Shown: positions 27,692-64,000 of the stretch, in pieces
How positions within the stretch are numbered: the stretch's first letter is position 1
Layout of the letters: each line of letters begins with the position of its first letter
Source: a virus
Reading direction: 5' to 3' (one strand)
DNA length: 64,000 bases
IMG/VR virus record: IMGVR_UViG_3300037247_001602
Span: 30,489 to 94,488 of that record
Program-made: the position numbers and the translations under genes
The notes under the pieces: generated by a model
The model's input: only the letters and a program-made list of their open reading frames with translations
Databases searched by the model: none
Told to the model about the DNA's origin: nothing

Positions 27692-27725
27692 AAAGAAAAA
27701 GGGCCTTAGCCCTTCTTCTTTTTAC
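27692..27725. terminator. bidirectional terminator at the strand switch
   Basis: AAAGAAAAAGGGC-CTTA-GCCCTTCTTCTTTTT. Confidence 0.6.
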
Positions 27726-35253: not shown

Positions 35254-35285
35254 GACAAGCTCCTTCTCTCTGGGGGAATAAGTTC

Positions 35286-37889: not shown

Positions 37890-37916
37890 AGGAGTCCTCC
37901 TTTCTGCGTATTGCGG

Positions 37917-39014
37917 TTACTCGCCAAGAGTCTTGAGAATAGTGCTCGCAGCACGCTTGGCGCCTACAAAGCTCGGATAGGGCTCACTCGCCTTCCTGGA
38001 GAGTTTCAGGCGCCCCTTGCTCCGAGCGTTAGTCACGAATAGATTCCAGGAAACGATCACGGCCTCCAGGCACTGCTCCAGGAATTTATTCTTCCTTTCT
38101 TCGGATGCCTTCTCACCGAGCCAGTTGCGCAAAGCCAAGACCGGGCTCGCTGAACCGAGATTAGCACCACTCGCGAGTCCATCCCAGAATTCCGATGCCT
38201 TGCCTTTGTCCGACGCTGAGGTGAAATACATCGCTGAGATTGCTATTCCTGGGGTCAGACCAAGCACCTTCTTGAAGACATTCTTGTACTCTGGGCATTG
38301 GTACCACCTGCACAACTCTGCAAATTGCGGATGGTCATTGAAGACAGCCTTGGGGTGTCTGGGTTTCGTTTTCTCCCTACCGAGTGTGACTCCCTTTCTC
38401 TTGATCGCCTGAGCATACCGGATGGACGTATTGATCGCATCCGTCAGCATCCCTGTAAAGTCCAGGGGATTCCCCTTCTTGTCTCTCCAACTCTCCATGA
38501 CATGCTTGGCGCTTCGGGCGATACCGTTGTCTATGAACTCGAAGTTCTTGTGTGGTATCCCTTGCACGACAAGTACTTCCATTGGTATCCCCGTCTCGAT
38601 TACTGCGCCGATTCTGTTTTGTCCGTCAAGAAGGCGACCAGTATCATCGATGATTATGCACTGCCCTGTGAGCATCCACGAACCAAGTTCAAGCTCACTG
38701 GCGTAAGTGCGCATAGCCCTCGGGACGATTCGCCGGTTTGCCCTGCGGTACGGAAGGAGAAGTACGGCCAACGCGGGGGTAATGATCGCCCAACGCATTG
38801 TGACATTTTCGGACTCCTTCATCTTCTTATATCCCTGTTCCAATAGTTTCAAGACCGCTTTCTTGTATGAAGGTTTGATGGATGATGATGGGAATTCCTG
38901 GGGGATAACAGACTTTTTAATGAATCTCATCTCTACTTTGCTGTGTACTGCTACTTTTGAGAAATCCCATTTGTCCTTCGACAACATACTTGTTCCATAG
39001 AGGCTCTTGGCCAT
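37917..39014 (-). CDS. ParB/Srx-like N-terminal domain protein
   Basis: NRRI...IIIDDTGRLLDGQNRIGAV...FIDNG.AR. Confidence 0.7.
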   Translation of the reverse strand: MAKSLYGTSMLSKDKWDFSKVAVHSKVEMRFIKKSVIPQEFPSSSIKPSYKKAVLKLLEQGYKKMKESENVTMRWAIITPALAVLLLPYRRANRRIVPRAMRTYASELELGSWMLTGQCIIIDDTGRLLDGQNRIGAVIETGIPMEVLVVQGIPHKNFEFIDNGIARSAKHVMESWRDKKGNPLDFTGMLTDAINTSIRYAQAIKRKGVTLGREKTKPRHPKAVFNDHPQFAELCRWYQCPEYKNVFKKVLGLTPGIAISAMYFTSASDKGKASEFWDGLASGANLGSASPVLALRNWLGEKASEERKNKFLEQCLEAVIVSWNLFVTNARSKGRLKLSRKASEPYPSFVGAKRAASTILKTLGE

Positions 39015-39207
39015 GCCAATCTCCTTGCTTCTCGGTTGAATGTGATAAGATCCCGTGATTTTTATACCTAGAAAAGAAGAAGATCAATTTGGCTAGAGTT
39101 AAGGTTCTCCTCCATGATTCTTATACCGAAAAAAGATAAAAGATAGAGGTAGCACTTGGAGGACCCAAGCTGCTTGTCGCTACCTCTGGGGGGATGTTGA
39201 GGATTGA

Positions 39208-39675
39208 TTAGGTGGGAGTATTGCCGATCGTGACTTCGACCTTTGTGTGTGTCGTGATTTCTGCGAGAGGCCCAGCCACGAAAGCCACAAACGGAACTCT
39301 GGCCAGCGTTTTCTTGGCGATCTCACGCTCCCACTCTCGCTTGTCCTGCGTGGCCATATAGCGGGTGTAGGCCACGTCGTGTGCATGATACCCATGTCCA
39401 GGAGCGTCCCTGGATCTCTGATCTCCTGGCACATGATAACTGGAGAACTCCAGAATCACGAAATGCTTGCCCCTGAACATGTCTTCTGCTTTTGTGATGG
39501 TTTTCATGGTTTTCTTCCTTTCCTCCAGCGCTTCTTTTGCCTCCTTCAACGTTGTCCTGAACACCGCTCGGTGTATCTTGAGTGCCTCGATCAGCTTGTT
39601 AGCAGCCATCAACCGATGGATCTCCGCCCACGCCTCTGCATTGTTCAGATTGGCATCGTCCTCTCCCGTTGGCAT
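39208..39675 (-). CDS. protein with ribosomal L7/L12 C-terminal-like helix pair
   Basis: KLIEALKIHRAVFRTTLKEAKEALE. Confidence 0.4.
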   Translation of the reverse strand: MPTGEDDANLNNAEAWAEIHRLMAANKLIEALKIHRAVFRTTLKEAKEALEERKKTMKTITKAEDMFRGKHFVILEFSSYHVPGDQRSRDAPGHGYHAHDVAYTRYMATQDKREWEREIAKKTLARVPFVAFVAGPLAEITTHTKVEVTIGNTPT

Positions 39676-40224
39676 CGCCTCCTCCTTTCTCGACTTCACC
39701 AGGATCAATCACGAAACTGTTTCAAGTGTCACGTAGTTGCCTCCTAGTGTCAATTATCTCAATTGCCTTGACAAGGGCCAGTCTGTCTTTCGCCTCTTGC
39801 CACAAATAATTGAGGCGACAATCAGATACGTGATCGCCACCAGACACCGTGCCACCGCACGTGCAATACGGGTTGAGACTCAAGTATTCCCGTATTAGTT
39901 GCTCCATGATTCTCCTCCTTTCTCGTCTCTCGCCAGTCCTCTAGCTCCCCGTCCTTTGCTTTTTGATTCGCTGCCGATACGCCAGATTCTTGTTCGTGTC
40001 ATTGCTGGACGGTGGAGAGTCCGTCTCGAAATAACAGATCGGGCAAGTCGCGCGATTCTGTGATGTAACCTTGGGATCATATTGCAGTCGCTCTCCAGTC
40101 TTCGATCGCATGGTGTAGCCTAGCCCCACGGCGTGCCTCCACATCCTTTCACAGGCAGGGCATTCTACTAAGCGGGTTTCCATGATCTCAGCCCTCCTTT
40201 CTCGTCTCTCGTCTCGATTTTCGC

Positions 40225-40953
40225 CTAATTGCTCAGGCTGAATATGTCGGACTCAGCAGGAGGCCCAACCAAGCCACCAGGAATCTCCGCATGAAGTCGA
40301 ATCTGGTAGTCATTGGCAGTGATACCCGCCTCATCAATGGACGCCTCCCAATAAGCCCGGTGTCGTCCTGCCGGCCACAGTATTCCCGGATTCGTCATCG
40401 TTGCTGGGACCCAGGATGAGATAGCCGAACCTCCCCGATACTCCATGATTGCATATACACTGAGGCCAGCAGTCCAAATGTCGTAATTGACCGTGACGTT
40501 TCCCGTTCCGGAATTTTCAATGGAAGCGATCGTGATATACGGAGGCGGTGACCCTGTGCTGAAAACCACGATAGGCATGCCCCTGTAACCGGCCTTGACG
40601 GCCTGATTTGTGCCATCGTCGATCACGCCATAGACATAATACAGCCCGTCCGCGACGCTGGTAACATCCCAACTGAACTTCGCGGTTTCATCGTTTTCGT
40701 TTTTAGTACCGATTTGCCATCCGTCAAAGCCCTTGTTGTCATAATCGGCGAAGAACGTAATGATCGCTTGATCATCCGGATCAGAAGCAACATAAGTGAT
40801 AAGCGCTGTTCCTCTCGCCTGTGTAAGCTTCGATTCATCTATCAAAGTGAGGGTCGGAGGAGAATTGGCACTGATGGGAGACGAGCTATCGGAACATCCC
40901 CCGATGCAGAACAATAAGGCGATCGTCAGAACAAAGGGTTGGGGTATACTCAT
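40225..40953 (-). CDS. lipoprotein with Ig-like domains
   Basis: Hydrophobic signal peptide ending IGGC, followed by a Ser-rich linker; beta-sandwich pattern. Confidence 0.65.
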   Translation of the reverse strand: MSIPQPFVLTIALLFCIGGCSDSSSPISANSPPTLTLIDESKLTQARGTALITYVASDPDDQAIITFFADYDNKGFDGWQIGTKNENDETAKFSWDVTSVADGLYYVYGVIDDGTNQAVKAGYRGMPIVVFSTGSPPPYITIASIENSGTGNVTVNYDIWTAGLSVYAIMEYRGGSAISSWVPATMTNPGILWPAGRHRAYWEASIDEAGITANDYQIRLHAEIPGGLVGPPAESDIFSLSN

Positions 40954-41318
40954 AATTTCGCTCCTTCTTGAAGATGTGCCTTAAGTTTCTTTCGCGACTT
41001 TTACCAGCCTCAGATCGGCCTTGTATTCTGGGCCCGTGTCATAGTAAATCCTGAAGACTTTGTAGTAGCCAACGTACTTGCCACTACGGAACGCAGGGAT
41101 CAGGGCCTTTCTGTCCTTCAGGATCGTTTCGTAGGGGTTGAACATGAATATCCCTTCGATTGGATATTTCACGGGAGCGCTATTGTCTTCCCTATGATAT
41201 TTCCTCCTCTCCATTCGTACCATGTCTTGATAGCAGTACCAACCGATGCAAAACGCCCACCCGAACTTGAACATGGGCATTTTCCCCCAGGCCATGAGCC
41301 ATCTTATCAGATCCATGA

Positions 41319-41609
41319 TCATGGCGCTCTCCCTGTCTGCTTGTAGGCCTCCAGTTCGGCTCTGAGGCGTTCGATCTCATCCAGAGCCTCAGGCATGGCC
41401 GTGCGGGAAGCGGCGATGAATTCGTCACCTGCGAACGATCCTGGGTTTTGCAGAATGGCGACAACCTGATACCATTGTGCCTTCTCGGCGTCCGTAACAA
41501 CAAACCGCATGGCTCCGAACCCTATGAGCTGGCATGCCCTCCAGGGCCCAGGTGTTGCCTCGTTACACAGTCTCCGAAGTTCCTTGATCCGCTTGGGCGT
41601 CATGCTCAT
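41319..41609 (-). CDS. Ead/Ea22-like protein
   Basis: ATPGPW...EFIAASR..PEALDEIERLR. Confidence 0.65.
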   Translation of the reverse strand: MSMTPKRIKELRRLCNEATPGPWRACQLIGFGAMRFVVTDAEKAQWYQVVAILQNPGSFAGDEFIAASRTAMPEALDEIERLRAELEAYKQTGRAP

Positions 41610-41747
41610 TTACATCTCCTTTCTCGACTTATGAATAGTTCCTTCAGTAGTCTTATACCCGGATTGGTTGCTGAAATAGTCTGGACAATCGGGCGCACCT
41701 AAGTTATATTAGGTTCCCACGAAGTGTAAGTAGAGTAAGTAGGCGGG

Positions 41748-42917
41748 ATGAAACGCGACAATAACGGCAAACCCACCGTTGCAAGACCGTTGCAGCTCAG
41801 CAATGGTAATGCAATGGTAACGGTACCCCTTGAGCGTAGCTGGGTTACAGTATCTGAGTTCTCCAGGATCACCCACATTGCGATCAAGACAGTCAGAGAT
41901 TACATCCGACAGGGCCGGATCGCTACCAAGGCTCACCCTCACGTCAACAGACGCAGAGTCATCCCCGTAAGAGAACTCAATCGGACGATGATGAACCCTG
42001 CTGGGGCTCTCATCCCGTACCACGGCAGGATGTACCCACACAGCTTCTACATCTTTTACTGCTTGGCCAGCTATGGCAGTCGGTTCGAGATGATTAAGAG
42101 AGACCTGGAACGATACCGTGTAGTCGTGCCTCCGATGAGCGTGCTGAGAGCAATGGAAGAGGCCATATTCGAGACAGCGCCGAAAATCATCAAGAGAAAG
42201 CATAGGCTAGGATTCAGATACAACACGCTCATTGAATTCGAGAATTGGATGGAGATCTTAGGCTTCAAAGAAATATATGAAGATCCGCTTGGCTATATCC
42301 CTGCCAGAATTCTAAATTCGCAACGACTCCGGATGGTAATGGAAGTCATGGCGAGCGCAGGATTTAGACCATACGAGATCTCTGACAAGCTCCATGAGGT
42401 AACTGATGTTCTTGTAGATCCGTCGATTATTAGTAATTACCTCCTCATGTTCTTTTACCACAGGCAGATGGAGGATGATGACTGGTATGACTATCTGATA
42501 GATGTTCGCGCAGTAAATGCAATGGAGGCCAAGATCAGGGATGAGTGCGCGGACAGTAAAGTCGCCGTATACCAGCACTTAGGGCTTACCGGCGGCATAG
42601 ATATCCTTACTGAATTTGAGAAAAACCTCTATGTCGCCACGAATCTATACCGAAAAATGGCCACCTCTGAAGACTTCATGCATCAACAGGCAAGCGTGGC
42701 ACAAACCAGGGCAATGGGTAATCTTGTAGCCATCATGATGAAGTGGAAAGAGATTCACACCAAGGAGTCTGCCGAATTGCAGCAGCGGAGACAAGCTGCA
42801 CAGGGCCAAGGCCTGAATCCAGCCAATATCCCGGAGAAATCTGCCGAGGATAATGACGAAGTATTTGAGGAAGTGATCCAGAAGGAAGCCGAAGATGAAT
42901 CCGTTTCAAGCGCGTGA
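41748..42917 (+). CDS. HTH protein, candidate terminase small subunit
   Basis: N-terminal excisionase/MerR-like HTH; directly upstream of and overlapping TerL. Confidence 0.5.
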   Translation: MKRDNNGKPTVARPLQLSNGNAMVTVPLERSWVTVSEFSRITHIAIKTVRDYIRQGRIATKAHPHVNRRRVIPVRELNRTMMNPAGALIPYHGRMYPHSFYIFYCLASYGSRFEMIKRDLERYRVVVPPMSVLRAMEEAIFETAPKIIKRKHRLGFRYNTLIEFENWMEILGFKEIYEDPLGYIPARILNSQRLRMVMEVMASAGFRPYEISDKLHEVTDVLVDPSIISNYLLMFFYHRQMEDDDWYDYLIDVRAVNAMEAKIRDECADSKVAVYQHLGLTGGIDILTEFEKNLYVATNLYRKMATSEDFMHQQASVAQTRAMGNLVAIMMKWKEIHTKESAELQQRRQAAQGQGLNPANIPEKSAEDNDEVFEEVIQKEAEDESVSSA

Positions 42918-49534: not shown

Positions 49535-50186
49535 ACCTTGTAAGACCTTTCATGTAAACCTCATGGGCGAGACCCTGTGCTCGCTTAGGGTCGTTGGTTA
49601 GAGCGAGGAAGTATCCGTAAGACAGAGCCTCCCAGGAGTACTCTTTATTGGGATCTATATCATCAGCTTTCTTATACACACTCGCCTCCCACTGCTTAAT
49701 TAACTGTTCGTTATACCTTCTTTGCGGCATTCTTATTCCTCCGCTCCCTTTTCCGTTCGCGACGCTGGCGGATTTTTCTGAATCTCTTTTTCATCTCCTC
49801 GTCGGTTTCCTGTCTCACCCCATAAGGCACATACGAGGTTCCGTCGTAATCGCCTTCCTCACGGAAGTGAACGTGCGTGTAACCAGCATAGAGAGCTTTT
49901 GAGGCGAATCCCGTTAGCGTTCTCACTAGGTCCTCGATTGGGCCCTCAAACAAACCCCCAGGGCCCCACTCACAATCAATATCTACGTGGGCAATAATGA
50001 ACATTCTCCTCAAGCGGTCTTCTCGTTTGAGGGGCAACCTCCTTCTTGTCTTTGCTCCGGAGTGGAGGCCATATAGGTCTCCGTATTGATTGCAGTAATC
50101 GCATAGATACGTTCCCTTGCCATACGATCCTACGCCACACGAGAATCTGTCTTCGTAGTATCTATTGATGCATTCTTCGCAAATTC

Positions 50187-50612
50187 TCATGGCAAGGTCT
50201 CCCTTACCAGTTCGAGGATCTTTCCAAGGTGATTTGCTCCTTGTCCATTAGAGACGCCAAAATACGTGTCGCCCCACCAATTCCCCTCGATCAATTGGGC
50301 ATCGCCTGTCTCTTTGAGCTTCTCAGCCAAACGAGGATTCTTATGGAATTTGGTCCACACAATGTCGAACATGATTCCCCATTTAAGTTTGTCCCAATCA
50401 GGGCGTTGATCGACTTTTCGCCCCATCTTCTTTGCAGCACTCGGGGACTTTGCGGCCAAAATCTCGCGCCTAACAGCGGGATCTAACGTCTTTGCTGCCT
50501 GATAGGCATGTTCGGCTGATGGGTATTCATAGCCGCAGTATTCGACTTTGGCCAATGCGAAATTGGACAGGAATCGATGATCTCCATCGAAGGTTTCAAT
50601 CGGTATTGTCAT
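50187..50612 (-). CDS. NADAR family protein
   Basis: FLSNF, SAEHAYQAAK, KF..NP.L..L..TG...LIE...DTYFG..G.N.LGKIL..VRE. Confidence 0.9.
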   Translation of the reverse strand: MTIPIETFDGDHRFLSNFALAKVEYCGYEYPSAEHAYQAAKTLDPAVRREILAAKSPSAAKKMGRKVDQRPDWDKLKWGIMFDIVWTKFHKNPRLAEKLKETGDAQLIEGNWWGDTYFGVSNGQGANHLGKILELVRETLP

Positions 50613-53600
50613 CTTCTTTCCTTCTCCTCTCGCGGCTCATCTCATCAACCTGGGATTTGAGTTTGCTTTCCGCCAATTGGTTGGCAATTTCCTTCTCTTT
50701 CTTTCGCTGTTTTATCTCCAGACCTAGCAGTTCATGCGCGATATTCCAGGAAGTTCTGGCGATCATTTTAACAGGTTCAGCGAAGTCTTGCTGTAGATAT
50801 TTTGCCGCCACTGCTGGCACTACGGCCTTTATAAACCCCGTTCTCATCTCGGACAAGAGCCTTGGACTATGTTCTTCAGTCATCATGGTACTCCCGCTGC
50901 TGATTTAATGCGCTGAATAATACCAGCGACAGTTCCAATAAAGTAGTAGGCCGACTCGTCATGATCCACTCGGAAAATCTGGTGGTTTCCTGCCTTTTGG
51001 GCAAGTTCTAATCCTTCTTCGAATAGCCCGACTTCATTTACTCTGTCCTCAGAGTCGAATTGCACCCATGCATCCGCAATTTCCCATAATTCTAGAGATG
51101 CATCAGAGAGAATCTGTCGTCTGTCTAGATCTCTCAGTAATTTATCCAATTGTGGATTTGTTTTCATATTCCCTCCCAGCTAAAAGGGAGCGGATGCTCC
51201 CTGGGAAACTATGGATTAACCGCAGCTTTTTCCAAGATCTTGTGATAGCGAATTCCTGCTCTGGCGGAGATTGGAGACTTTCCCCAACCAACTCGCAGGA
51301 CATTGTAGACGTATTCGATTTGGATCGTTCCGTAGCGGTAGCGCCAGTATGCCTCGTGCCACCCATCCCCTTTGGGGTCATCGGAGTCATCGGCCAGTTC
51401 GGAGTCATCGCCCGCATCGGCGCGGGCCAGGAGACTGAATTCTTGTTCGCTCCTCCAACTGATTGTGCGTTCGAACTGTCTCGCAGTATCCAGAGTCCGG
51501 CAGGCCTCGAACCCCTCGATAGATCCCTCCAGTTTTGCTCCCTCGAACTCTTGTTTCACGCTGGCGATTCCCTCGGTGATGAGGATCTCTTTAAGCGCTT
51601 CAAGTGTCATTATGAGTTTCCCCCGTAGGTGCCTGTCTGTAGATAAACATCTTTTCACGGAAAAGATTGTCACCAAGCACCATACTATATTCAAGAATGT
51701 CGAGTTCTGGCGTGGCCTCGACAGTGCTGAAAACCAGATCCTGGAATTGCTTGGCATCGGTAAAAGCTTTGCATCGCGCATCTCTTTCGATGAGGGCGGT
51801 GATCAGCGCAATGAGTTTGATTCCTCCGCTATTGCCGTCAACGATTTGGAGGATCAGTTTCGCAAGATCCTGTTCCTTTTCCTGTGGCATCGTAAATCCT
51901 CCTTTCGTCAGGGCTTAGAGATGATCTGGTGAGTCCGTGTTCTTTGTATACGAACTGAGCGAGCTGTCCGAGTTCCCGTTCAACGTCCTTGAGGGTGATT
52001 GGATGGTCAACAGCCTCTTGAGTAACGGCAGCAATTGCTGCATCTTCACCATGCCTCTCCTCGATGGCCTCAGCGGCTATTATGGCCCTGTGGTAATCGA
52101 TCATCTCCGGATCATCCCCGAGCTTCCTGATGAGATCCGCCATATTGTCTTCGTCATGACTTTCGAGGAATCTAGCGCAGACCTCGAAAGCCTCCCGTAG
52201 AGACTTGCCCTGGTGGACACAGGCAGCACAGACAAAATCTGCCGCGAAGATCCCATCTAAAGGAGTAGCGTTTTCCACAAAATGCCCGCAAGGAAGCTTG
52301 GGGTGTCTATTGATTGAATCAACGGCTTCCTCCTTTTCTTCCTCCGGGCTATCAGAGTTTTTAAGAGCCATCTTCCACAACCTCCTTGTCTCGGTGAACA
52401 TGTTAACTTCTCCACTCTACTTATACCCCTAAAGCGGAGGGTTCTTGAGCGATTCGGCCAATCTGATTCTCCAAATATTATATCCCTGCGCCCATTTCTT
52501 TCCTTCGCCGCCCAGAAGGACTACCTCACAGAACAACGGCGGCTTCGGGGCTTCTAATGCGATTTGGACGATTTCCTTCAGGACCTCATACTCTCTAGCG
52601 CCAGCATCTTCTACGGCGAAAGAGAGTCTTGCCCGCAGACCTGTGAGAGCAGAATGCATTGGGCCATCGGCGAGTCCGTTTTCGTCGAGTGTCATAGCCA
52701 TAAGTGCGGCGATCTTCTCCAGTTCCTCCTGGACTTTAATAATGACTGCCCGGTGCAAGTCCCAGGGTTTAGGAGCCTTGTCGCCACTGCATTTGAGGCA
52801 GATCCCTCCACGATGCCATGTGGTGCCGCCGCCAGAGCAAAAAGTACATTTATCCATGATCTCTGTTCCATCGCCCCAGCAAGTAAGGCAAGATTTCGAG
52901 GCATATGACACACCATGAGGGCAAGTAGGAAATTGCACTTCAGCTTTTAGAAGCTCTATTTCCTCCTCCTTGCGCTGCAGTGATAGTTCTAATTCTCGGA
53001 TCTCTTCCATCGCACACTCTTTGTCCGAAGTCGTAGGTTCTGTCGAAGACTTGGATTCTTGATTCAATGTCATCAATCACCTCCGTTCGGATGGGAATCC
53101 ACTCTAGTGGTTTGCCCATAACGGCCTCGTAGAAGCGCCTCTCGATTAACAAATCATCGTATACCAGCGTCAGGAAGGATGTCAGTGACCTGATATGGGG
53201 TAGAGTGCGTGAGTCCTGAATAGTAAGCAGCTTCATCTCTTCTATAGAGTGAACAAGACCCAATCCTTTCTTCAAGTCGTCCATGAGAAGATTCAACAAC
53301 TTTCCCAATCTAGCCAATTGGGCGTAGGCTTCGTCTCTCTCCTTGATGATGTTCGTGATGTTCCTCGGATGCTTGGGGTAGCCGTCCAACCGGGTGAATT
53401 CGACGGCCCATTCTAGATCTGCTTCTAGTTTTTTGATTTTCGTCCTCAGCTTATCGTTCTCAGCATTCAGATTTTTGATAACAACTCTGCTATATTGGTC
53501 TGGATCAGATCCGTCATTATCAGGAAGCCAATCATGAACTGGCTCTAGCTTATCAGATTCTGGCATTACTTCTCCTTTGTCAGGCCTGGGACTACTTCCG

Positions 53601-55457
53601 CGAGGCTGGCAACATGTTTGAAAACCTTCCTGCCAGGCATTGCCGCCCACAAATGGTACTTATCCGCGTCTGTGAAATAGTTCCAGCCTCTTTTAATCGT
53701 CATGGTCGATACAAGTGTTGGGGAATCGAAGGTAACAAGGTAATCCGGCTTCTTCTGGCGTCTCTTTTCCGGATGAACTTTGCTTGCGTACACTGAAGAG
53801 GCAATGAAACGGTGTGCACTATTCCCATTGATGAAGATTTTTCTCCCTTGGAGATTCCTCAGGAAGTTAACTACTTTAATGCTGCGAAGACTTCTGAAGT
53901 ACGTGCCGAGCTGATAGATGATGGCGAGCTTAACAACGAATACCCACGGCATTGGGGAAGTCCCTTCGCTTGCTGTTTTTATCAGTGCCGCCCTACGTAT
54001 GATGGAACTTCTTTTGTCAAATATTGTTGCAAGATCTACCCGGAACATGAAGAGAGATAGACTCTTGTCTACCCGAACTGAGACCTCGACTACGTTTTCT
54101 CGCATAGTATTGTTCGCGAGAAACCCCCGATCTATATTTGGACCCACATATTCGATTTCGGGAAGCGGTTCATGGTAGTTATCCGTCATATATTCCAGCA
54201 TTCTTAAATATTGAGTCAGGGTATCGTGATGCATCTCGACGCTTCTTTTGAAATGTAGGGCGGGACGTACCATTTCCCCGCCAAGCTGCTTGTGATAGTC
54301 CTTTCCCTTCATAAGAGTTTTGGTTAGATTCTTCTTGCTTTGTTCGATGAGGTCACGGGTGCGTTGCATGTCTTTGCTGAGATCTTTGCGGCACCTTCTG
54401 AGCAATTCGCCGTAAGTAATCATGATCTACCTCCACGCCCTCCTTATACCTAAAGAAAGGGCGCAGGCCCTTTCAGAGATGCGATACGATGAACCGGGCA
54501 ATCACCCCTTCCCAGGTCACGACATGGCGATGCTTGGCCACTGGGAGATTCTCGAAGTTATGCAGTATATATTTTAGTTCATCGCCACCAGCCTGGACCT
54601 TCTCGACGAACTCGACGAGTACTCCCGAGGCAGCAACTGGCAAAGATTCGCCCACATGCCATTCGTATGTTTTCCCCGATCGATCTATAATGACAAGCAT
54701 GCTAGTCTCCCTTCAGTTGTGCGAGTGATTGTCCCTCAAACGGCCACACCACTTCTCCCGGATTGTCGGCCTCGTATGCTCGTGCGCATTCGAAGCAAGG
54801 ATGTTCCCAATACCCATTGTCGTTCAGTTCGCCGCTGCCGAATGTCAAACCGCTAACAACTCCTGTACTCACGCCACATTCTGGATTTCCGCAAGCCGCT
54901 CCAGTTGCAGTCCGCTCCGTCTGTTCACACTGATGACAGCGCGGCTTGGATGCATTATACAAACCGCAATAGTTACAGGTATATTCGTTGTCGCCCGGAT
55001 GCTGCTTAACCCACTCGCAGACACAATCAAAACCAAGGCTGGGATTGCCGCATGTGCAGTTTGCCATTGGAGTTCCTCCTTCTCCCGGCAAAGTTAATCG
55101 TTCTACTACTCTTATACCTAAAAAAAGCCGGGATCAGATTGAATCCCGGCTTTGGCATTTAACGTGCAGATACCCATTTGCCCTTACGAAGCCGCGCAAG
55201 AATCTTGCAGCACCAGTAATTCTTCTCGTCATGTGTTGTCTGTATCCTGGGCCTTCGCCACGTCAACCAAAACGTTCCTGCAATCGCCTGTAGCCACACG
55301 CAGTTCTTCGGCAACAAGTTTTCGATATTTTCAAAATCCGCCTGCTTGTCCCATTTGACGGTCTTCTGATGCCGCCAATTGTGATAGTACCTCCTGAATG
55401 CTTCACGTAACTTTTTCGACAGTCGTATTTTACTCATTCTCCATTCCTCTTGTTGGG

Positions 55458-55769
55458 CTACCACTCGTCCCAACCTCGCAGTTCGTGGGGCTTCTGACAG
55501 TACGCAGACGTACACGTCCACGTGTGCTCACGGAACTCCCACCTGCGGCAAGGATCGTCGCTCGTGTAGGTCACAGCACGATACGAACCTTCGTAGCAGT
55601 AGTACGTGTATTTAACTCTACTATAAGAGGTTTCCCTTATGTCTGTCATTGTCTCATCGGGAGCGCCGTAGGGCGGGTAAGGTACATCATCTCGTTTGCA
55701 GTTCTTGCAGCCCCCAGCAGCGAGACCAAGGATGAGGATTACGCTGATCTTTAATCGTGTTTTACTCAT
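55458..55769 (-). CDS. Cys-rich lipoprotein
   Basis: MSKTRLKISVILILGLAAGGC signal peptide and lipobox. Confidence 0.55.
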   Translation of the reverse strand: MSKTRLKISVILILGLAAGGCKNCKRDDVPYPPYGAPDETMTDIRETSYSRVKYTYYCYEGSYRAVTYTSDDPCRRWEFREHTWTCTSAYCQKPHELRGWDEW

Positions 55770-56298
55770 TTGTCATTTTCCTTGCTTGGTAAATGGCAGG
55801 AGGGGCAAGAGCTTCAATTCATCAAACAGCTTCCAAGACTTCGTTCTCAGTAATAAGGCGTGTATGTTGCACCATCCGAACTCTCACGACCTGAAATTTA
55901 TGCCTCACGCGCTGCATATGTTTCTTATGGAAGCCAGGATCGAATGTATCCCACGCCCCCTGGTCATCGAGTTGTTTTGCTCGCTTTAGGGCCTTCAGTG
56001 CATACTTGATGTCATGCCACCCATGCCGCCCTGTGTGTCGAAATGTATACTCAAAATCATCATGAGCCCTCGGGGCTTTGTATCTGGGGTAGCCGTCCTT
56101 GTCGCAGGTAGACGGGTCTACGGCCTCGGCCCATGAATCCGGTCCGCAATCAAACCAGCCCTTAGCATCAGGTCCTTTTGCCCATTCAAACGGGCTGTCT
56201 GGATAGCCCCACTCTTTGGTTTCACGCTCAAGTTGCCATTGAAGGACGTAGATCGTATATTCCCCGTCAAGCATCGGCATCTCTCCTCGTCTGGTAAA

Positions 56299-56388
56299 TG
56301 GCGGAGCAGGAGGGAATCGAACCCACAGCCCCTTTCAGGGCAACAGTTTAGCAAACTGCCCCAGCTAACCAATATCTGGCTCTACTCC
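56299..56388 (-). tRNA. tRNA-Ser(GCT)
   Basis: Cloverleaf; anticodon arm CAGTT-TGCTA-AACTG; long variable arm; G73; CCA. Confidence 0.9.
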
Positions 56389-56599
56389 TAACTGTCTATC
56401 GGGTAGATTTCATCCACGAGCCGTTTCGCCCTCGTATGAGTCCGGAACCTGTTCTTTTCAAGAAGGAACTGTCCATCTGCCCCCTTGATGAGCCACTGTC
56501 CGGCAAGGCGATACACAATGATACCATCGGATCGGACGAAGATGTTCTTGCTTTTGCGATCCCACGGCCCGCAGCCATTAGTTCCATTAGTCTTCATAT

Positions 56600-57031
56600 C
56601 TATCTCCCTGTTGAGCCAAACCCTGCATCTCCTCGTGAGGGACTTGTAGGTCTCTCGGAGATCTCGTGCACGCCCATCTCGTAAACGGGCTTAGGTACGG
56701 CCTGAGCAATCCTATCACCAATGTGGACTTCAAACACCTCTTTGCCAAGATTCACGAGCATAACCTTCACATCGCCCGTGTAGGTTTGATCGATTGTTCC
56801 AGGCGCATTGATTACTGTGATCCCCCTCGCAGCCATACCGCTACGGGGACGTATCTGCACCTCCCAGGCACGAGGAAGTTGCAATACGATTCCAGTAGAT
56901 ATGATCTCTACTTCCCCAGGATCTATGAATCGATGTTCAACAGAATAAAGATCGTAACCAGAATCAGTTGGATGAGATTTTGCTGGCACTTTGGCCTTAG
57001 AATGAGCCAGGAATACTCCGATTGATCTCAT
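56600..57031 (-). CDS. dut: trimeric dUTPase
   Basis: SGYDL, RPRSG, GTIDQTYTG, RIAQ, RGDAGFGSTG; ATG at 57031 follows AGGAG. Confidence 0.95.
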   Translation of the reverse strand: MRSIGVFLAHSKAKVPAKSHPTDSGYDLYSVEHRFIDPGEVEIISTGIVLQLPRAWEVQIRPRSGMAARGITVINAPGTIDQTYTGDVKVMLVNLGKEVFEVHIGDRIAQAVPKPVYEMGVHEISERPTSPSRGDAGFGSTGR

Positions 57032-57046
57032 AACGACTCCTTGAAA

Positions 57047-57138
57047 TGGCGGAGAGCAAGAGAATCGAACTCTCAGCCCATGTTTCAGGGCACCTGTTCT
57101 CCAAACAGGCCCGGCGAACCAATATCCGGCTACTCTCC
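57047..57138 (-). tRNA. tRNA-Ser(GGA)
   Basis: CCTGT-TTGGAGA-ACAGG; long variable arm; CCA. Confidence 0.9.
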
Positions 57139-57147
57139 TCCGTAGAT

Positions 57148-57199
57148 GAACCACAGAATCCTGGCGCCAAGTGTCCGAGTCATGTCGAGCCAAGATTTT
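57148..57199 (-). ncRNA. structured element family B, copy 1
   Basis: Minus strand AAAATCTTGGCTCG...CTTGGCGCCAGGATTCTGTGGTTC; ends pair; repeated at 57401. Confidence 0.4.
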
Positions 57200-57400
57200 C
57201 TATTTATAACTCGTAACCGTGCAAGGCCATTGGTATGCCTCATCACTTACTCTCCTCTTTTGTCCCAGTCGTCTGGATGCCAAATGAAGAAAAGAATCCC
57301 TGCACCGAGAGACTTGGTATCTCGCCAGCGAAAATAGATGCCGCATATGATATTCCATCTGTCACGAGTATCTAGTTTCATCTGTTCACTCTCCATACAA

Positions 57401-57473
57401 GAACCACAGAATCCCGGCGCCGAGCGAATTAGCGGATCTCCAGCATATACTGATCATTGCGAGCCAAGACTTC
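57401..57473 (-). ncRNA. structured element family B, copy 2
   Basis: Minus strand GAAGTCTTGGCTCG...CTCGGCGCCGGGATTCTGTGGTTC. Confidence 0.4.
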
Positions 57474-57768
57474 AAACCGTTTTCAGCGTGTGGATGTTTC
57501 CTCGCATAATGATCCACTAGCCTACGATCGAGCGTCTTTTGCATGATTGTCTCCGCTGAGGATTCTTCTCCTCCGGAATATGTGCATTTTGCCGCATACG
57601 CATCTTACCATGTTTATCCTTAGGGACATTGGCGCGAGAAAACCCCCACACCTAGTACAGGAACCCCCTCGTGAGGCGTTGGAAATAATGCCCGCAGGAC
57701 AGAAGTCACCAATTATGTAGATGAATCTGTGTAGCATGATTCCGAGAGTCATGGGAATCCCCTAAAAA

Positions 57769-57854
57769 TGGCGGAGCTGGAGGGACTCGAACCCCCGAGG
57801 CATTGCTGCCCACCTATTTTCAAAATAGGCCCCTCGTCCAGCCGGACCAGCTCC
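57769..57854 (-). tRNA. tRNA-Ser(TGA)
   Basis: CCTAT-TTTGAAA-ATAGG; long variable arm; CCA. Confidence 0.9.
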
Positions 57855-58786
57855 TCATAGCCCCCCTGGAATCGTAAATCCATCTACCTTGCGGACTTCT
57901 ATTATATCCGAATAAACAAATTCCGCTCGGCACTGATAGCATCTGTCATGGGCGTTCAGTACGGAGCCTGTCTTTCTCACCATCAGCAAAGGCCCTATGC
58001 GGCAAACTGGACATATTGATGCAAGCCTACCTCCACTGTATCTTTGTAGTTCGCCATGTTTGACAATGACGACTTCAGCGTCTAGCCCCATCTGGAAGTA
58101 GTGAATCGATCTTCCTACGCTCATCGTATATGGCATCCTTCCATGGTTTCAACGGCGCCGATATTCATATCGAAGAATGTGCAGATCACGAATCGATTTC
58201 TCCTCATTTGATCTGCGGGGAAAGCGCATCTTACAAAATTGCACTGTAAGAATTCACAATTGGTCACTTTGCTTAGGTCTACATCTGTGAAATGGCATGT
58301 GTCAATTCCCATCAGGTTCAATACAATTTTACCGCCAGTGAATGATCCATTGCTAAAAAGGCCACACTCATAGAAGTCTACGAGTTTTGCTCCTAGTGTA
58401 TTCATCTCTTCTCCGGTGGCGCCACTTCGCCCACTCCTGATTCCAGCACGGTTCCGCAGTGGGAGCAAAGGAAGAAGAAGGGGGAGGTTTTCGATGGGAG
58501 ATGCATTCCCCTGGGTGCTAGCATATGGACATTCTTTTCACAATGTGGGCAATAGCTCTTTTCTGCCTTTTGGAGAGCATAGTCGCTAAGATCGATGAGA
58601 TGTGTTTCTTGAAGAACCTCTTTGCAGGTAGCGATCATGAGTTTCCTGTTCTTTTCTGGGACATTCTTCCAGGCGACAGCCGACTCATCACGAGTCTTAT
58701 ACCCATATCTAGACGCTAAGCGCTCGTATATCCCGTGAAACTTCTTTGCTAGTTCTCCTGGCGTCATTATTTTCTCCTCCCAGAGA

Positions 58787-58875
58787 TGGCGGAAGCGGGG
58801 AGAGTCGAACTCCCAAGGCCTATTAAGCTCGTCCGGTTTCGAACCGGGTGCCGTCGCCAATCGGCTTGCGCTTCC
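58787..58875 (-). tRNA. tRNA-Ser(CGA)
   Basis: CCGG-TTCGAAA-CCGG; long variable arm; CCA. Confidence 0.9.
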
Positions 58876-59046
58876 ATCCCTCAAAGATCAGGCTCAGGCG
58901 GATATGGGAATTTCATCCATTTGCTTTGGTAGTAGTCTCTGATCTTTCGCCCATTCTTGGTTCGACGGGCGCGAGGCCTGCCGTGAATGAGCAGGAACAT
59001 CTCGCCCAGGAAGAAATACCAGAAACGAAGGAGGAAGACGATCATG

Positions 59047-59610
59047 CTAATCTCCTACAAAGTTCCGCCACACTTTCCTGCCACCGATCTTAGCCCTGAG
59101 TAGTTTCATCGGTTCAGGTCTAGATGGTGTGCTCCGCAACTTCATGCCTACTTCATCTGGGGTTGCATTGGCCTTGTTCGCGTTACATGGCTCACAGGAC
59201 GTAACACAGTTGTCCCAGGCAGTCTTTCCCCCACGTGACTTTGGTAGGACGTGATCGATCGTCACACGCTCCCTACCAGGCTGGGAGCCGCAGTATTGGC
59301 ACGTGTACTTGTCGCGCTTGAAGATACTGAATTTGGAGTAGTTCATGTGCCTGAGAGGAACTTCACCATACTCAGAGAGTACGACGATCTCTGGCACCTG
59401 GACCGGGTAACTCGGCGTTTTCACGAAAAACTGTCCTTCCTGGACGCCCCGCTCAACCCACTTCCCAAATCTAAATACCTCATAGGTTACAACATCGACA
59501 GCGAACGCCTTGCTCTGGTACATTTTGGTAAGAGCATCAGCGGCGTTGGAGACAGCGACCGGATACCAATTTTTATTCAAAACGAGGACGGATCGTTCTA
59601 AAGCGTTCAT
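59047..59610 (-). CDS. HNH endonuclease
   Basis: VLVLN...IFKRDKYTCQYCG...TIDHVLPKSRGG..WDNCVTSC..CN..K. Confidence 0.92.
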   Translation of the reverse strand: MNALERSVLVLNKNWYPVAVSNAADALTKMYQSKAFAVDVVTYEVFRFGKWVERGVQEGQFFVKTPSYPVQVPEIVVLSEYGEVPLRHMNYSKFSIFKRDKYTCQYCGSQPGRERVTIDHVLPKSRGGKTAWDNCVTSCEPCNANKANATPDEVGMKLRSTPSRPEPMKLLRAKIGGRKVWRNFVGD

Positions 59611-60179
59611 CGGATCTCCTTTTCTCAGGCAGGCTTTTTGCTGTAGTGATTGTAGCCAGCTTCTACGAGGTCCTTGCGAGCTAACTCTAAGATCCACGCA
59701 AGAAAGCCTTCCAGGAACTCATCCTCTTCGGCGTGATCTAGCACGGCTCCTAGCTTCCGCAGATCATCAACCCCGCATCTTTCGCTGGTGCCGCCCTTGA
59801 GTATGCCACGATAGCGACACAAGGCTATCATCATAGGGCCGTTGAGTGTTTCTAGGGGCATTGTCTTTCTCCTTTACAACTGGGCGTTTCTAGGGTTATC
59901 GGATCTCTCCTCCACAACCGCCATCAGCGATATGTTTTCGATACCACTTGGCCCAGGACTTGTAGTTTACCCAATCAGTGTAATCGTGTCCACACTTTGG
60001 GCAGAGTGTTTCTCCTGCTCCTCCGCTCGTCCGCGAGATTTTGAAGTCAGGTGGTCTTGGATCTTTTCTATACCCCTGCCATTCGAAGTTGCATTTTCTG
60101 CAGCGATACCTACAATCAGGAAATTCCTTCCGTTTCTTCTTCTTTTTTCTAGCCACTCATGTGGTTCTCCCTAAGGTAA

Positions 60180-60262: not shown

Positions 60263-60446
60263 TTATGTTTTCACATCATCAACATGTTGCTCGACGATAT
60301 AAATGGCTTCGTGTTGTTTTGCGACTTCCCTCTCAAAGGCTTCGTTCTGATCGAGAAGATCTGCTTCGAGTGCATTTTCGCGAGCCAGATCGAGAACGAC
60401 TACCAAAGCTTCTGCCAATGTCATTGTGATCTCCCTGAATTAGAGA

Positions 60447-60530
60447 TGGTAGGACGGGACGGAGTTGAACCGCCACAGCCGAAGCGTCGCGTTTACAGCG
60501 CGGTGGGCTCTCCACATGCCCAGCCGTCCC
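60447..60530 (-). tRNA. tRNA-Tyr(GTA)
   Basis: CGCG-CTGTAAA-CGCG; long variable arm; ACCA. Confidence 0.88.
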
Positions 60531-60534
60531 ATAA

Positions 60535-60625
60535 CCGGGATCGTAGCATCGCAAGCCACCCATTATTGGTGGTCCGCATTTTCCGCCTATTTATGACGGC
60601 TGCGTTTTTAATGCGGCTCCCCCGG
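60535..60625 (-). ncRNA. structured RNA family A, unit 1
   Basis: CCGGG-GGAGCCGC...GCGATGCTACGAT-CCCGG. Confidence 0.65.
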
Positions 60626-60635
60626 AAATATAAAA

Positions 60636-60718
60636 CAGGATCATAGCATCGCCGAGGCCATAGGTTCAGCCCCTCAGCTCCTCCCGGTTAGAGCCGGGTA
60701 CTACGGGCGGCTCCCCTG
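60636..60718 (-). ncRNA. structured RNA family A, unit 2
   Basis: CAGG-GGAGCCGC...GCGATGCTATGAT-CCTG. Confidence 0.65.
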
Positions 60719-60726
60719 ATGTTTTC

Positions 60727-60827
60727 AGCTCAGATCATAGCATCGCGGCATTGGCAGTTTCAGGCCACCAATGTTTGTCCTGGTCGCGTCGGGGTATAAG
60801 CCCGATGACCTGGCGGCTCCCTGAGCT
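60727..60827 (-). ncRNA. structured RNA family A, unit 3
   Basis: AGCTCAG-GGAGCCGC...GCGATGCTATGAT-CTGAGCT. Confidence 0.65.
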
Positions 60828-60839
60828 TTGTTTCCTTAG

Positions 60840-60923
60840 TACGGGTGACTGGATTCGAACCAGCATGAGCTAAGCTCACAGCGCCCTTAACGCTGCGCGT
60901 CTACCAAGTTCCGCCACACCCGC
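60840..60923 (-). tRNA. tRNA-Leu(AAG)
   Basis: CAGCG-TTAAGGG-CGCTG; Leu-type D and variable arms; A73. Confidence 0.85.
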
Positions 60924-60930
60924 ATTATAC

Positions 60931-61197
60931 TTACTGGTCCTCGCCGTCGCCCTCTTCTGATTCAGTCATAGCGTCAGCCCAAGGGCCTTCGGCTGGAATC
61001 AGCATAATCATGGGGACCATTTCTTCCTGTGCTTGCCCGTCAGGATCAATTCCAGATGGTTCTTTAGTTTCCATCTCCTCGATGACAATCTCTTCGGAGT
61101 AAAGAAACTCGTCATCCGAATCTTTCCCGCAGGGGACACCTATCTCAATATGGTCCGGATACTTCTCAAGTGCTTCAATGAGATCTCGTTTTGTCAT
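60931..61197 (-). CDS. acidic hypothetical protein
   Basis: Begins MTKRDLIEALEKYPD; GGAG RBS; promoter motif at 61227. Confidence 0.7.
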   Translation of the reverse strand: MTKRDLIEALEKYPDHIEIGVPCGKDSDDEFLYSEEIVIEEMETKEPSGIDPDGQAQEEMVPMIMLIPAEGPWADAMTESEEGDGEDQ

Positions 61198-61241
61198 GGT
61201 CAGACTCCGGTATGATTCCTATTTGAATTATACCAGAAAGC

Positions 61242-61317
61242 TGGTTGGGCGCTCGGGAGTTGAACCCGACACGCAGACTTTATAAGAATCCGCAGATCAA
61301 CCGGATCGTCGCGCCCA
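61242..61317 (-). tRNA. atypical tRNA-Ile(TAT)
   Basis: 7-bp acceptor TGGGCGC/GCGCCCA, ACCA, T arm TCGGG-TTCAACT-CCCGA, loop CTTATAA; D arm non-canonical. Confidence 0.75.
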
Positions 61318-62051
61318 TTCCTTTCCTTCTATGCCAGTGCCCATTCAGTCCACAGGTGGCTGTAAGCATCTAAAGAGTAATCGAGCAGCATACTTCCTGC
61401 AAGATAACTCCAGAAATTGTTGCACTCAATATATGTCGCCATATACTTCGATGGAGAAGTTACCGTATTAGACATAATAGAGTCTGTGCGCGTGAGTTGG
61501 TTTTCGAAGATATGATAGCCGCAGTTGTGGCAATAGAGATGCCTGCCTCTGCCTGGGAATAAGACGCCCCAGGTTCCGATCAAAGAGCCCTGTTGCACGC
61601 GTATTTTGGTCTTGGTGATATATTGTGGATCGAAGCAATTTGTACAAAACACAATGGATCTAGCCGGAATCTGACTCCTTTCGTTAGGTAGTCCCAGCCT
61701 GACTGTGGTGATCATAGGTATTTGGTGTTGGAGAATACCCAGTCGCGCTTCCAGTCCCATTCATCCTGGACATAGCAACAGAACTGATCTCTGTTCAGGG
61801 AAATTGTCTCGTCCTCGCACATTTCTAGCATCCCGATGACTGTGGTATATGCATCAAGATGGCTGGATGGCTCGTCGAAAACAGCAGCCAGCAGAGGATG
61901 CCTTTTCCCGCCTCTAGCCCCACGTCCATGATTAGGGCTGATTTCTTTGAGCGTCCCCTCGCTAGCTTCAGCAACAACTTTCTTGGCCTCTTCGGCGACA
62001 TCCCTGCGCCAGTTCCTCATGGCCTTCTGGTAATCGGATCGATGTTGCTCT

Positions 62052-62330
62052 TTATTTGCCATGAGTACTGAAAGAAGTTTGTCCTTCTTGATCATCACCG
62101 ACATTGGACTTGGGCTTGGCATCATTTTCCTCCCTATTGGGCGACCATGGTTGCAGGTGAATCGTAACAGGTGTCCAGCTAGTAGCAGCTATGACCATTT
62201 TGACAGCTTGTTCGCAGTTATATTTCTGCGTGTATCCTCTCGGTGAGATCGCGATGATTTGTCCGTTCTTCCCTTTGAGAATCCAATTCCACCGTGATTC
62301 CAAAGTCTCTTGATAGACAACGAACTTCAT
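62052..62330 (-). CDS. YegP/DUF1508-like protein
   Basis: KFVVY....RWNWILKGKNGQIIA.S.RGY..K..C..AV..V. Confidence 0.65.
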   Translation of the reverse strand: MKFVVYQETLESRWNWILKGKNGQIIAISPRGYTQKYNCEQAVKMVIAATSWTPVTIHLQPWSPNREENDAKPKSNVGDDQEGQTSFSTHGK

Positions 62331-62349
62331 GATGTTCCCCAAGGGCTGG

Positions 62350-63129
62350 TCATGTTTCATCTGATCCCATCCATCCCCAGGATATTTCTGCGAGAGCCAT
62401 ATCCGTGCAGTACCACTCGCCTCGAACATCCCAGAGCCAATCGATACTCCACTTTCCGTCGAAGTGCTGAGCGACCTGATAAGTCAGATCCGTGAGAATA
62501 CCAACCTCCTCGCCGCTTTCCTCATTGAGTTGTGCGAGTTGCTCCCGCCAATCATCTGGAATGTCTGTCTTTTTCGGAGGCGGCAGTTCGCCTTCGACTC
62601 CGAATATATCTAGATCTTGCGGCTCTGCCCATTCGGCGATCGCCCCTTCCGGCCAGTAGGGAATGTGTCCAACGACCTTGCGATCCTGGATAAAGTAGCG
62701 TCGCTCTTTGCTGACGGGGAATTTCCCCACGAATGCGGTAAAGGCGATCTCTGGCTGGAGCATTTCCCGGATGACCCATACATCATGGGGCAAGCCCATC
62801 ATATGTACGAGATGGCTCCATTCAATGAGTTTCCCCATATGGGAAAGCAGGTCATCGGCCTTCTTGACGAAGCACGTATCCTTCCACTCATGCTTTCCAG
62901 CTCCCTGGCCCGTGCGGAGGAAGAGTGGGTAGCCAATCTGAGACTTGGCGGCATTCTTGATATTCTGGATGAAATCGTCGATTCCATCAGGCCTGTGGCC
63001 GTCAAGGACTCTCACAAGATCGATGCTGGTTTGGAAGATGATCGTCTTCGGTGTCTTCACGCCCGACGCTTTAAGTTTTGGATACCAGTAAGATAGGCAA
63101 CACTTCTTACGGTCTTCCACTTCCTTCAC
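62350..63129 (-). CDS. ATP-grasp-fold protein
   Basis: V.TPKT...YPLFLRT...KH.W...WVIRE...ERRYFI...WSIDW...WYCTDMA; GTG at 63129 follows GGAGA. Confidence 0.55.
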   Translation of the reverse strand: MKEVEDRKKCCLSYWYPKLKASGVKTPKTIIFQTSIDLVRVLDGHRPDGIDDFIQNIKNAAKSQIGYPLFLRTGQGAGKHEWKDTCFVKKADDLLSHMGKLIEWSHLVHMMGLPHDVWVIREMLQPEIAFTAFVGKFPVSKERRYFIQDRKVVGHIPYWPEGAIAEWAEPQDLDIFGVEGELPPPKKTDIPDDWREQLAQLNEESGEEVGILTDLTYQVAQHFDGKWSIDWLWDVRGEWYCTDMALAEISWGWMGSDET

Positions 63130-63325
63130 GGGATTCTCCCTTGATCCTGTACTGAGTCCTGCGGTGACGCTTCCAGCAGCGATCATCGAAATCGCTGCGA
63201 AGAATATCATCCCAAGCACAAACTAAATGCTTGGGTTTACGACGCCCACGGACTGGCCAATTCTGGTTAGCCCTCTTCTCCTGAAGCGTCCGTGGGTGCT
63301 TCATCAGGCTTTCGATCCGTCCCAT
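63107..63325 (-). CDS. small basic phage protein
   Basis: HPRTLQEKR...RGRR...AWDD...WKRHRRTQY; GGAGG RBS. Confidence 0.6.
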   Translation of the reverse strand: MGRIESLMKHPRTLQEKRANQNWPVRGRRKPKHLVCAWDDILRSDFDDRCWKRHRRTQYRIKGESREGSGRP

Positions 63326-63491
63326 GTTGTCCCTCCTTAGGTTGATTACCTAGGGGGGATGCATTGTCTCCATCATCTGGCTTCTCCTTTGGAACGTAGT
63401 CGGAACAGTCCATTATGACGCCGCAGTTCATGCAGCGCACCTGGCAAGGAAGTTCGATCGTTTCGTGGCCGCAGAATTCGCAGATCAAAAG

Positions 63492-63564
63492 TACCCCCGG
63501 CAGGACTCGAACCTGCATGATCCGGGTAGAGGCCGGACAGTTTATCCGATTAGCTTACGGGGGC
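63492..63564 (-). tRNA. tRNA-Arg(TCT) with C33
   Basis: TCCGG-CCTCTAC-CCGGA; D loop GGATA (A20, Arg identity); T arm GCAGG-TTCGAGT-CCTGC. Confidence 0.8.
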
Positions 63565-64000
63565 TCATTCGATCAGCCCTTCCTTCTTGAGTAGATAGAG
63601 AAGATCGATTTGGCTTTTGACCGAGCAGCAGATCAACGCTCGTGGGGCGTTGTTCCAGATATTTGAATTCGTACCATCATCATTATAGGGGTCTTCGATT
63701 GGGTTTCCACCTGTGTTTCTGATATATTTTCGATATTTTTCCATCCATTCAGGCATCTTCCAGGTCTTCTTGGCTTTGGCTACCATGAGCAAGTGAACCT
63801 CACTATAGAAACATGCAAGGGGAGTTTTGAGGTATCGACTTCAAAGCCAGTCGTGTCATCTCGGCTGTATTTCTTAAGCCAACAAGGAAGATCCTTTGCC
63901 ATATCATACCGTGACCAGGACCCCACCCCAACGCCTGCTTCATCTGGGTCCTCATGATTGAAATACTTCTCGACTTCTTCGGGAATCGCAATCCCTGCTG

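Follow-up and report, generated by a model that had tools for sequence, protein, structure and literature searches.

Phage transfer RNA (tRNA) arrays are usually taken to serve codon supply or anti-defence, and no function is known for the small RNAs that accompany them. RNAC and RNAD of phage T4, also called species 1 and 2 RNAs, are small and stable and are encoded together with the phage tRNA genes. The function of both is still unknown (PMC9697503). Here we describe three tandem RNA units, a, b and c, that lie in the tRNA array of an uncultured phage whose DNA originates from a marine-sediment metagenome. The stretch analysed (the window, 64,000 nucleotides (nt)) is the last 64 kilobases (kb) of the IMG/VR virus record IMGVR_UViG_3300037247_001602, which is 94.5 kb long and about 52% complete. 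Like the two T4 RNAs, the units are small RNAs accompanying phage tRNA genes. However, no sequence similarity to them was seen (a blastn search against 50,697 phage records matched tRNAs only), and descriptions of the T4 RNAs include neither a kink-turn handle nor a tandem modular design.

With standard kink-turns, among them Kt-7 of 23S rRNA and those of the drum, HOLDH, RAGATH-18 and Actinomyces-1 RNAs (PMC8191799), the constant core of the units shares a three-nt bulge followed, at the level of sequence, by putative G·A and A·G pairs, C:G at -1b:-1n, a G at 3n and, to either side, a Watson-Crick C helix and a non-canonical one with ordinary pairs further along. It differs from them in being the constant part of a modular family, in the near-invariance of its C helix and in the U or C carried at 2n by two copies, and none of the kink-turn-bearing families in Rfam matches the phage units.

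Box C/D and H/ACA guide RNAs and the U4 5' stem-loop, which are L7Ae/15.5K sites, are likewise small RNAs with a kink-turn as protein-docking platform, as may be the case here, and the bulged strand of the phage motif reads UGAU, like the C box. A box C/D identity was nevertheless rejected. The phage units have the opposite orientation: their non-canonical helix is the terminal one, and the bulge lies in the 3' strand; GGA, GUA or GCA stands in the 5' strand; and the D-box CUGA, guide and ACA elements are all missing. The phage host is also taken to be bacterial, because the relative G001 encodes a transfer-messenger RNA (tmRNA), and neither PF01248 nor an L7Ae gene was found in the three phage fragments G000, G001 and G002. 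Two faint C/D-box matches in a 4.5-kb Rfam scan are near 62.5-63.4 kb, outside the units.

YrlA-type Y RNAs (RF02553) are recognised by the Rsr-binding motif GNCGAA(N)G, by T and D arms like those of a tRNA and by a neighbouring Ro60 gene (PMC4201824). They too are modular small RNAs that have a terminal helix with a protein-binding site and that occur in phages. The units differ in having neither the motif nor the two arms, no Ro60 neighbour and no RF02553 match, and no TROVE or RtcB gene was found in the same three fragments. The Y RNA link suggested in a preliminary description of this locus is therefore not supported.

Architecture and conservation of the units

Unit coordinates refer throughout to the minus strand, the one that encodes the tRNAs.

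60727..60827, minus strand: unit a (unit 3 of the preliminary description), 101 nt, closing stem AGCUCAG/CUGAGCU
60821-60827 paired with 60727-60733, minus strand: closing stem of unit a
60813-60820, minus strand: 5' core of unit a, GGAGCCGC
60734-60746, minus strand: 3' core of unit a, GCGAUGCUAUGAU
60782-60810, minus strand: hairpin 1 of unit a
60749-60773, minus strand: hairpin 2 of unit a
60636..60718, minus strand: unit b (previously unit 2), 83 nt, closing stem CAGG/CCUG
60707-60714 and 60640-60652, minus strand: 5' core and 3' core of unit b
60535..60625, minus strand: unit c (previously unit 1), 91 nt, closing stem CCGGG/CCCGG
60613-60620, minus strand: 5' core of unit c
60540-60552, minus strand: 3' core of unit c, GCGAUGCUACGAU

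Each unit consists, in this order, of a private stem, GGAGCCGC, an interior of 54-66 nt, GCGAUGCUAYGAU and the complementary stem. The closing stem is private to each of the three window units and perfectly complementary in all of them. Above the core is a helix of 5 base pairs (bp) with an AU bulge, usually followed by a three-way junction with two hairpins; two hairpins make up the interior of unit b and also that of unit c, where they have 5 bp each and 7-nt loops. Spacers of 8 and 10 nt separate the units, and unit c is 4 nt from tRNA-Tyr. The preliminary description had placed three tandem units with 8-10 nt spacers between tRNA-Leu(AAG) and tRNA-Tyr, and its coordinates and spacers match ours; the CGC/GCG and GC/GC helices, the AU bulge and the asymmetric GG/AYGAU loop that it drew for the core are all present.

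Relatives of the locus were found in three contigs. G001, an IMG/VR contig, came from a terminase search (80% terminase identity); its array is syntenic, with 33 tRNAs, a tmRNA and three units in the same gap before tRNA-Tyr. L111, a metagenome contig of 2.9 kb, has the same triplet ahead of tRNA-Tyr. The fourth member, X3, is a contig from a public marine run and was seen by aligning public contigs to the region. Across the family unit length is 74-107 nt. For proteins encoded near the units, identity is 67-74% in L111 and 38-62% in G001, and blastn at nucleotide level aligned only the tRNAs, part of an HNH gene, unit a, and a stretch from an open reading frame (ORF) of 53 amino acids (aa) through tRNA-Tyr into the end of unit c. 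The cores are almost unchanged.

Scanning metagenomes for the core gave at least 121 matches at at least 120 loci; among the matches listed, a script check found the closing stem only in L111. Exact-core scans of IMG/VR with two gap ranges gave no match, and a tandem-pattern scan of the same database returned G001 alone. Tandem-pattern scans of 185,579 species genomes yielded only chance coding repeats and one unrelated 52-nt array. Within reach of the searches made, and as far as these tools see, the family is restricted to a single small clade of phages.

A covariance model of closing stem and core, a check that had been proposed for this locus, recovers exactly nine units in 230 kb; an extra weak match at L011:18625-18690 is inside an ORF and was discarded as chance. 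Aligning the nine units gives 98% pairing over the 11 handle pairs, six of which are doubly changed; none of 500 shuffles equalled this, and sliding the partners by 1-3 columns as a control gives 34-51% pairing. The inner helix itself changes from CGC/GCG to CUA/UAG in unit c of G001 and to CGC/GUG in one L111 unit. Unit a has orthologues at L008:18745-18851 (G001) and L111:513-614, and in these three phages 93% of cells are paired over 30 modelled pairs, with 12 of the 30 doubly changed and again no equal among 500 shuffles. In unit a of X3 a G-C pair of hairpin 1 has become C-G, and hairpin 2 has three further compensations. The unit b orthologue at L111:622-702 keeps both hairpins through compensatory changes, and in the unit c orthologue at L111:708-798 hairpin 2 is fully compensated (CCACC/GGUGG to CUGUC/GACAG).

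Within the window, G·U makes up 10 of the 81 modelled pairs; the opposite strand would have A·C mismatches in their place, and the fold is therefore specific to the tRNA strand. Both the structured RNA on that strand and the covarying closing stems of the preliminary description are supported. The pattern GGAGCCGC-N(45-75)-GCGATGCTAYGAT occurs three times in the window and not once in 100 dinucleotide-preserving shuffles. The shared architecture is 0-4.3 kcal/mol from the minimum free energy in all nine units. Single-sequence folding z-scores of the three window units, -1.8 to +0.6, are unremarkable, and the case therefore rests on comparative data. A coding reading of the units was rejected: indels between orthologues are not multiples of three, and stop codons are present in all three frames.

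The tops of the units follow different histories. That of unit a is homologous across all relatives; in units b and c the window and L111 share homologous tops, to which those of G001 are unrelated, the unit b orthologue there (L008:18658-18731) having a 33-nt single-hairpin interior. In unit c of X3 the segment corresponding to 60553-60607 is swapped for 3 nt, and the stem, the handle and an 8-nt loop remain. Because interiors are replaced in G001 and nearly deleted in X3, the proposal of a constant handle under an exchangeable payload is borne out.

The units belong to no family that could be recognised, as had been supposed. A cmscan with all 4227 models of Rfam 15 gave nothing at E<=10 on the 316-nt unit region, so that no tRNA, Y RNA, ribozyme or kink-turn-bearing family matches, and at gathering scores there was no known-family match on the window units, the 316-nt region or the relatives. 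Identity as a tRNA or tRNA-like RNA was rejected (no ARAGORN or RF00005 call on the units at E<=10), as was identity as a known self-cleaving ribozyme (no covariance-model match at E<=10 for hammerhead, hepatitis delta virus (HDV)-like, twister, twister-sister, pistol or hatchet). A type III antitoxin array was also considered and rejected. ToxI-like arrays consist of near-identical repeats of about 36-45 nt beside a gene for a ToxN-type toxin, whereas the units are 74-107 nt long with unrelated interiors, and the ToxN family is missing from Pfam scans of 115 ORFs.

The core as a candidate kink-turn

At the level of sequence, the constant core reads as a standard kink-turn, and the asymmetric loop of the preliminary description can be sharpened accordingly to the published definition of that motif (PMC8191799). 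The 5' strand would be the non-bulged strand, with G at 3n, G at 2n and A at 1n followed by G-C, and the 3' strand the bulged one, with G-C, the bulge U-A-Y, and G, A and U at 1b, 2b and 3b. A three-nt bulge, U/C-A-Y, is unpaired on the 3' strand in all nine units, between helices that are supported by covariation. G1b, A1n and A2b are present in 9/9 units and G2n in 7/9; -1b:-1n is C:G throughout, and 3b:3n is U·G in seven units and C:G in two. By the rule that 3n is G, Mg2+-induced folding is predicted for the seven U·G units, and the same rules predict poor folding without protein for the two C:G units (PMC8191799).

A proposed protein-docking handle and its rivals

What, then, might a near-invariant handle beneath changing tops be for? 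Our tentative preference is that the units are processed small RNAs whose kink-turn handle docks a protein, the variable top giving specificity or cargo. The comparisons establish the structure, how it is conserved, its modular make-up and its strand; processing, actual kink formation, protein binding and a downstream role are what we infer here. The three units would be paralogous small non-coding RNAs of about 83-101 nt, transcribed with the phage tRNAs, and tRNA-processing nucleases would cut the short AU-rich spacers and so free them. Co-transcription and release are suggested because the units share their orientation with the upstream ORF and the tRNAs and have AU-rich spacers between them. 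The terminal helix formed by a unit's own ends, the kink-turn and the 5-bp helix with its AU bulge would together make up the handle, which may fold into a sharply bent platform that docks a host or phage protein. The lineage-variable top, usually a three-way junction with two hairpins, would supply the specificity or cargo of each RNA.

A wider version of this proposal, which we hold to be doubtful, makes the handle an address tag. Large tRNA-rich phages would put one kink-turn handle on several RNA cargos in their tRNA islands, and a dedicated protein would collect, protect, modify or deliver these cargos. If true, this would be a phage ribonucleoprotein (RNP) system without a described counterpart in bacteria. 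The family is in any case a clean one, in which a near-invariant handle that fits the best-understood protein-docking motif of RNA is combined with tops that evolve, are swapped and are deleted. Should a partner exist in the bacterial host or the phage, kink-turn RNP biology, so far mainly a matter of archaea and eukaryotes, would extend to phage infection. The handle design is also a natural scaffold for RNA engineering.

Several points weigh against docking through a kink-turn. Four genomes are known in total, all of one small clade. Units b and c of G001 have U or C at 2n together with a Watson-Crick C:G pair at 3b:3n and, judged by their nucleotides, would at best be kink-turns of a non-standard kind. 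The C helix (GC, AU bulge, CGC) is more invariant than a kink-turn by itself calls for, and the core could be something else; conservation beyond that requirement points to sequence-specific recognition. As to a partner, L7Ae, TROVE and RtcB are missing from the three phage fragments, whose records are 28-52% complete, and RNA-binding families were not seen in the Pfam scans of 115 ORFs, which gave NADAR, dUTPase, a receiver domain, HNH and AAA. No RNA run that contains the window DNA is listed.

The main rival, in our view unlikely, takes the units as folded, cis-acting spacer modules for processing or stabilising the polycistronic tRNA transcript. They would guide or block RNase E, RNase P or exonucleases, protecting the message of the upstream 88-aa ORF or the tRNA-Tyr leader, and would have no role as free RNAs. 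Such modules would fit a block that is always immediately before tRNA-Tyr (2-6 nt), the AU-rich spacers, the stop codon of the upstream ORF that is located in the closing stem of unit a in L111, and a handle that persists in X3 when its payload is lost. However, a stability hairpin needs neither about 20 invariant nucleotides nor three tandem copies, and compensatory changes preserve the payload hairpins between phages with a protein identity of about 50%.

It is improbable that the units are base-pairing regulators whose hairpin loops serve as seeds for pairing with phage or host RNAs, in the manner of the C4 RNA of P1/P7, with the handle as a stabilising scaffold only. Several payload hairpins do have 5-bp stems and exposed loops of 6-7 nt, and the hairpin-2 loop of unit a is semi-conserved (CCUGAAA/CUUGAAA/CUGAGAA), but most loops vary freely among orthologues and the interiors of units b and c have been replaced wholesale, one of them being deleted. 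A conserved complementary target was not found by inspection, no systematic search having been made.

Hammerhead and HDV-like ribozymes are known from contexts similar to the phage tRNA-array units, and a small conserved core of internal loop and bulge beside a multi-helix junction, repeated in tandem in a tRNA array, could suggest a self-cleaving ribozyme of a new kind, by which the array transcript is cut up. We consider this very improbable, since no ribozyme model of Rfam matched at E<=10, the core fits a kink-turn cleanly and the junction is dispensable in X3.

Equally far down is the already weak reading of the units as Y-RNA-like or tRNA-mimic decoys or tethers for Ro60/Rsr or anticodon nucleases. 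The terminal helix with variable modules is loosely Y-RNA-like, and the loop CUUAUAC of the window resembles the anticodon loop of tRNA-Ile(UAU). Against it stand the missing hallmarks given above (PMC4201824), the lack of any RF02553 or tRNA match on the units and the lack of TROVE and RtcB genes in the three fragments. The anticodon-like loops pointed out in the preliminary description, CUUAUAC and CUCUAA, are indeed present in the window; their resemblance does not extend to the orthologues, where the first reads CUUGUAA in X3 and AAUUGUA in G001 and has 9 nt in L111. Nor was any meaning supported for the same unit a loop as the complement of GGTATAAG. Decoy, antitoxin-mimic and guide roles, listed as possibilities in the preliminary description, are speculative.

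Finally, that the 3' core is a DNA signal, with TGCTATGAT as an extended -10 promoter firing the next unit, is hardly credible: a consensus scan flags CTGAAA-18-TATGAT with an upstream TG within unit a, and the window and L111 have TGnTAYGAT in 6/6 cores, but in G001 the critical last -10 position is C in two cores out of three (TATGAC, TACGAC), a change that is neutral for the RNA (G·U to G-C), and the covarying closing stems and the 5' core are left unexplained. Kissing loops between units, mimicry of Shine-Dalgarno or CsrA sites and tiny ORFs in the core were checked by eye as well and rejected, none of them being conserved.

Neighbouring genes and other observations

The minus-strand tRNA array called by ARAGORN spans from about 56.3 kb to the end of the record, and the genes next to the units are the following.

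60447..60530, minus strand: tRNA-Tyr(GUA), called by ARAGORN, 4 nt downstream of unit c
60839..60923, minus strand: tRNA-Leu(AAG), called by ARAGORN, Rfam tRNA 45.1 bits, directly upstream of unit a
60931..61197, minus strand: acidic 88-aa ORF, conserved (67% identity in L111, 49% in G001)

tRNA-Tyr comes after the triplet in all three relatives with available sequence, at 2-6 nt (window, G001 and L111). In the window it scores 25.8 bits against RF00005, under the gathering score of 29, and its D-arm region is unusual, with a 22-nt stretch that is identical in G001. This 22-mer was tried as a probe for relatives and was given up when the scan matched an unrelated phage without units. tRNA-Leu(AAG) is missing from the equivalent place in L111, where the 88-aa ORF abuts unit a and its stop codon falls within the closing stem of that unit. 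A promoter-like site, TGGTATAAT, precedes this ORF near 61225-61233, and the ORF probably shares a transcription unit with the RNA block. A protein search with the ORF found no match but itself.

A conserved basic Zn-ribbon ORF is also near the units (59896-60156) and is present in G002, which has no units. A search with it matched two Logan proteins, whose contigs probably bear more copies of the units. As a partner of the handle its product was dropped (AlphaFold predicted local distance difference test score of 54, no PDB relative). Pfam searches of the window at 27700-42917, 49711-59861 and 60263-63792 gave NADAR, a response-regulator receiver, a nicotinamide mononucleotide transporter and dUTPase.

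In G001 (L008, L009) the 33 tRNA genes and the tmRNA (tag ADNGYRMAA) are spread over about 30 kb, with small ORFs and HNH endonucleases in between. At the head of this array, upstream of tRNA-Asp (L009:19540-19830, minus strand), are three tRNA-like pieces that bear T arms and that neither ARAGORN nor Rfam called; one of them gives a faint YrlA match (17 bits, E 0.8). At L009:~19734 the 3' core of the handle recurs as a 13-nt copy, GCGAUGCUACGAC, without a proper handle (6.9 bits).

In the chromosome of Gracilibacillus xinjiangensis (L137:3405-4507), 21 tandem copies of 52 nt lie between genes for an M23 peptidase and an AimR-like regulator. Their consensus is GGGAGCC, 10 nt and then GAUGCUAUGAC, a coincidence; the pairing is not kept in all copies, and the array is probably unrelated to the phage handle. 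Within the window, a motif at 57146-57544 (minus strand) is repeated in the C-termini of tandem small paralogous ORFs, of which one ends in KSWLAMISICWRSANSLGAGILWFLYGE before its stop, one ends in TKSLGAGILFFIWHPDDWDKRGE before its stop and a third contains KSWLDMTRTLGARILWF. Repeated coding sequence accounts for this two-copy motif better than an RNA. The related phage G002 carries at L012:6365-6441 (plus strand) a tRNA with a CUA anticodon, labelled 'Pyl' by ARAGORN and of the amber-suppressor type, which hints that this phage may read TAG as sense.
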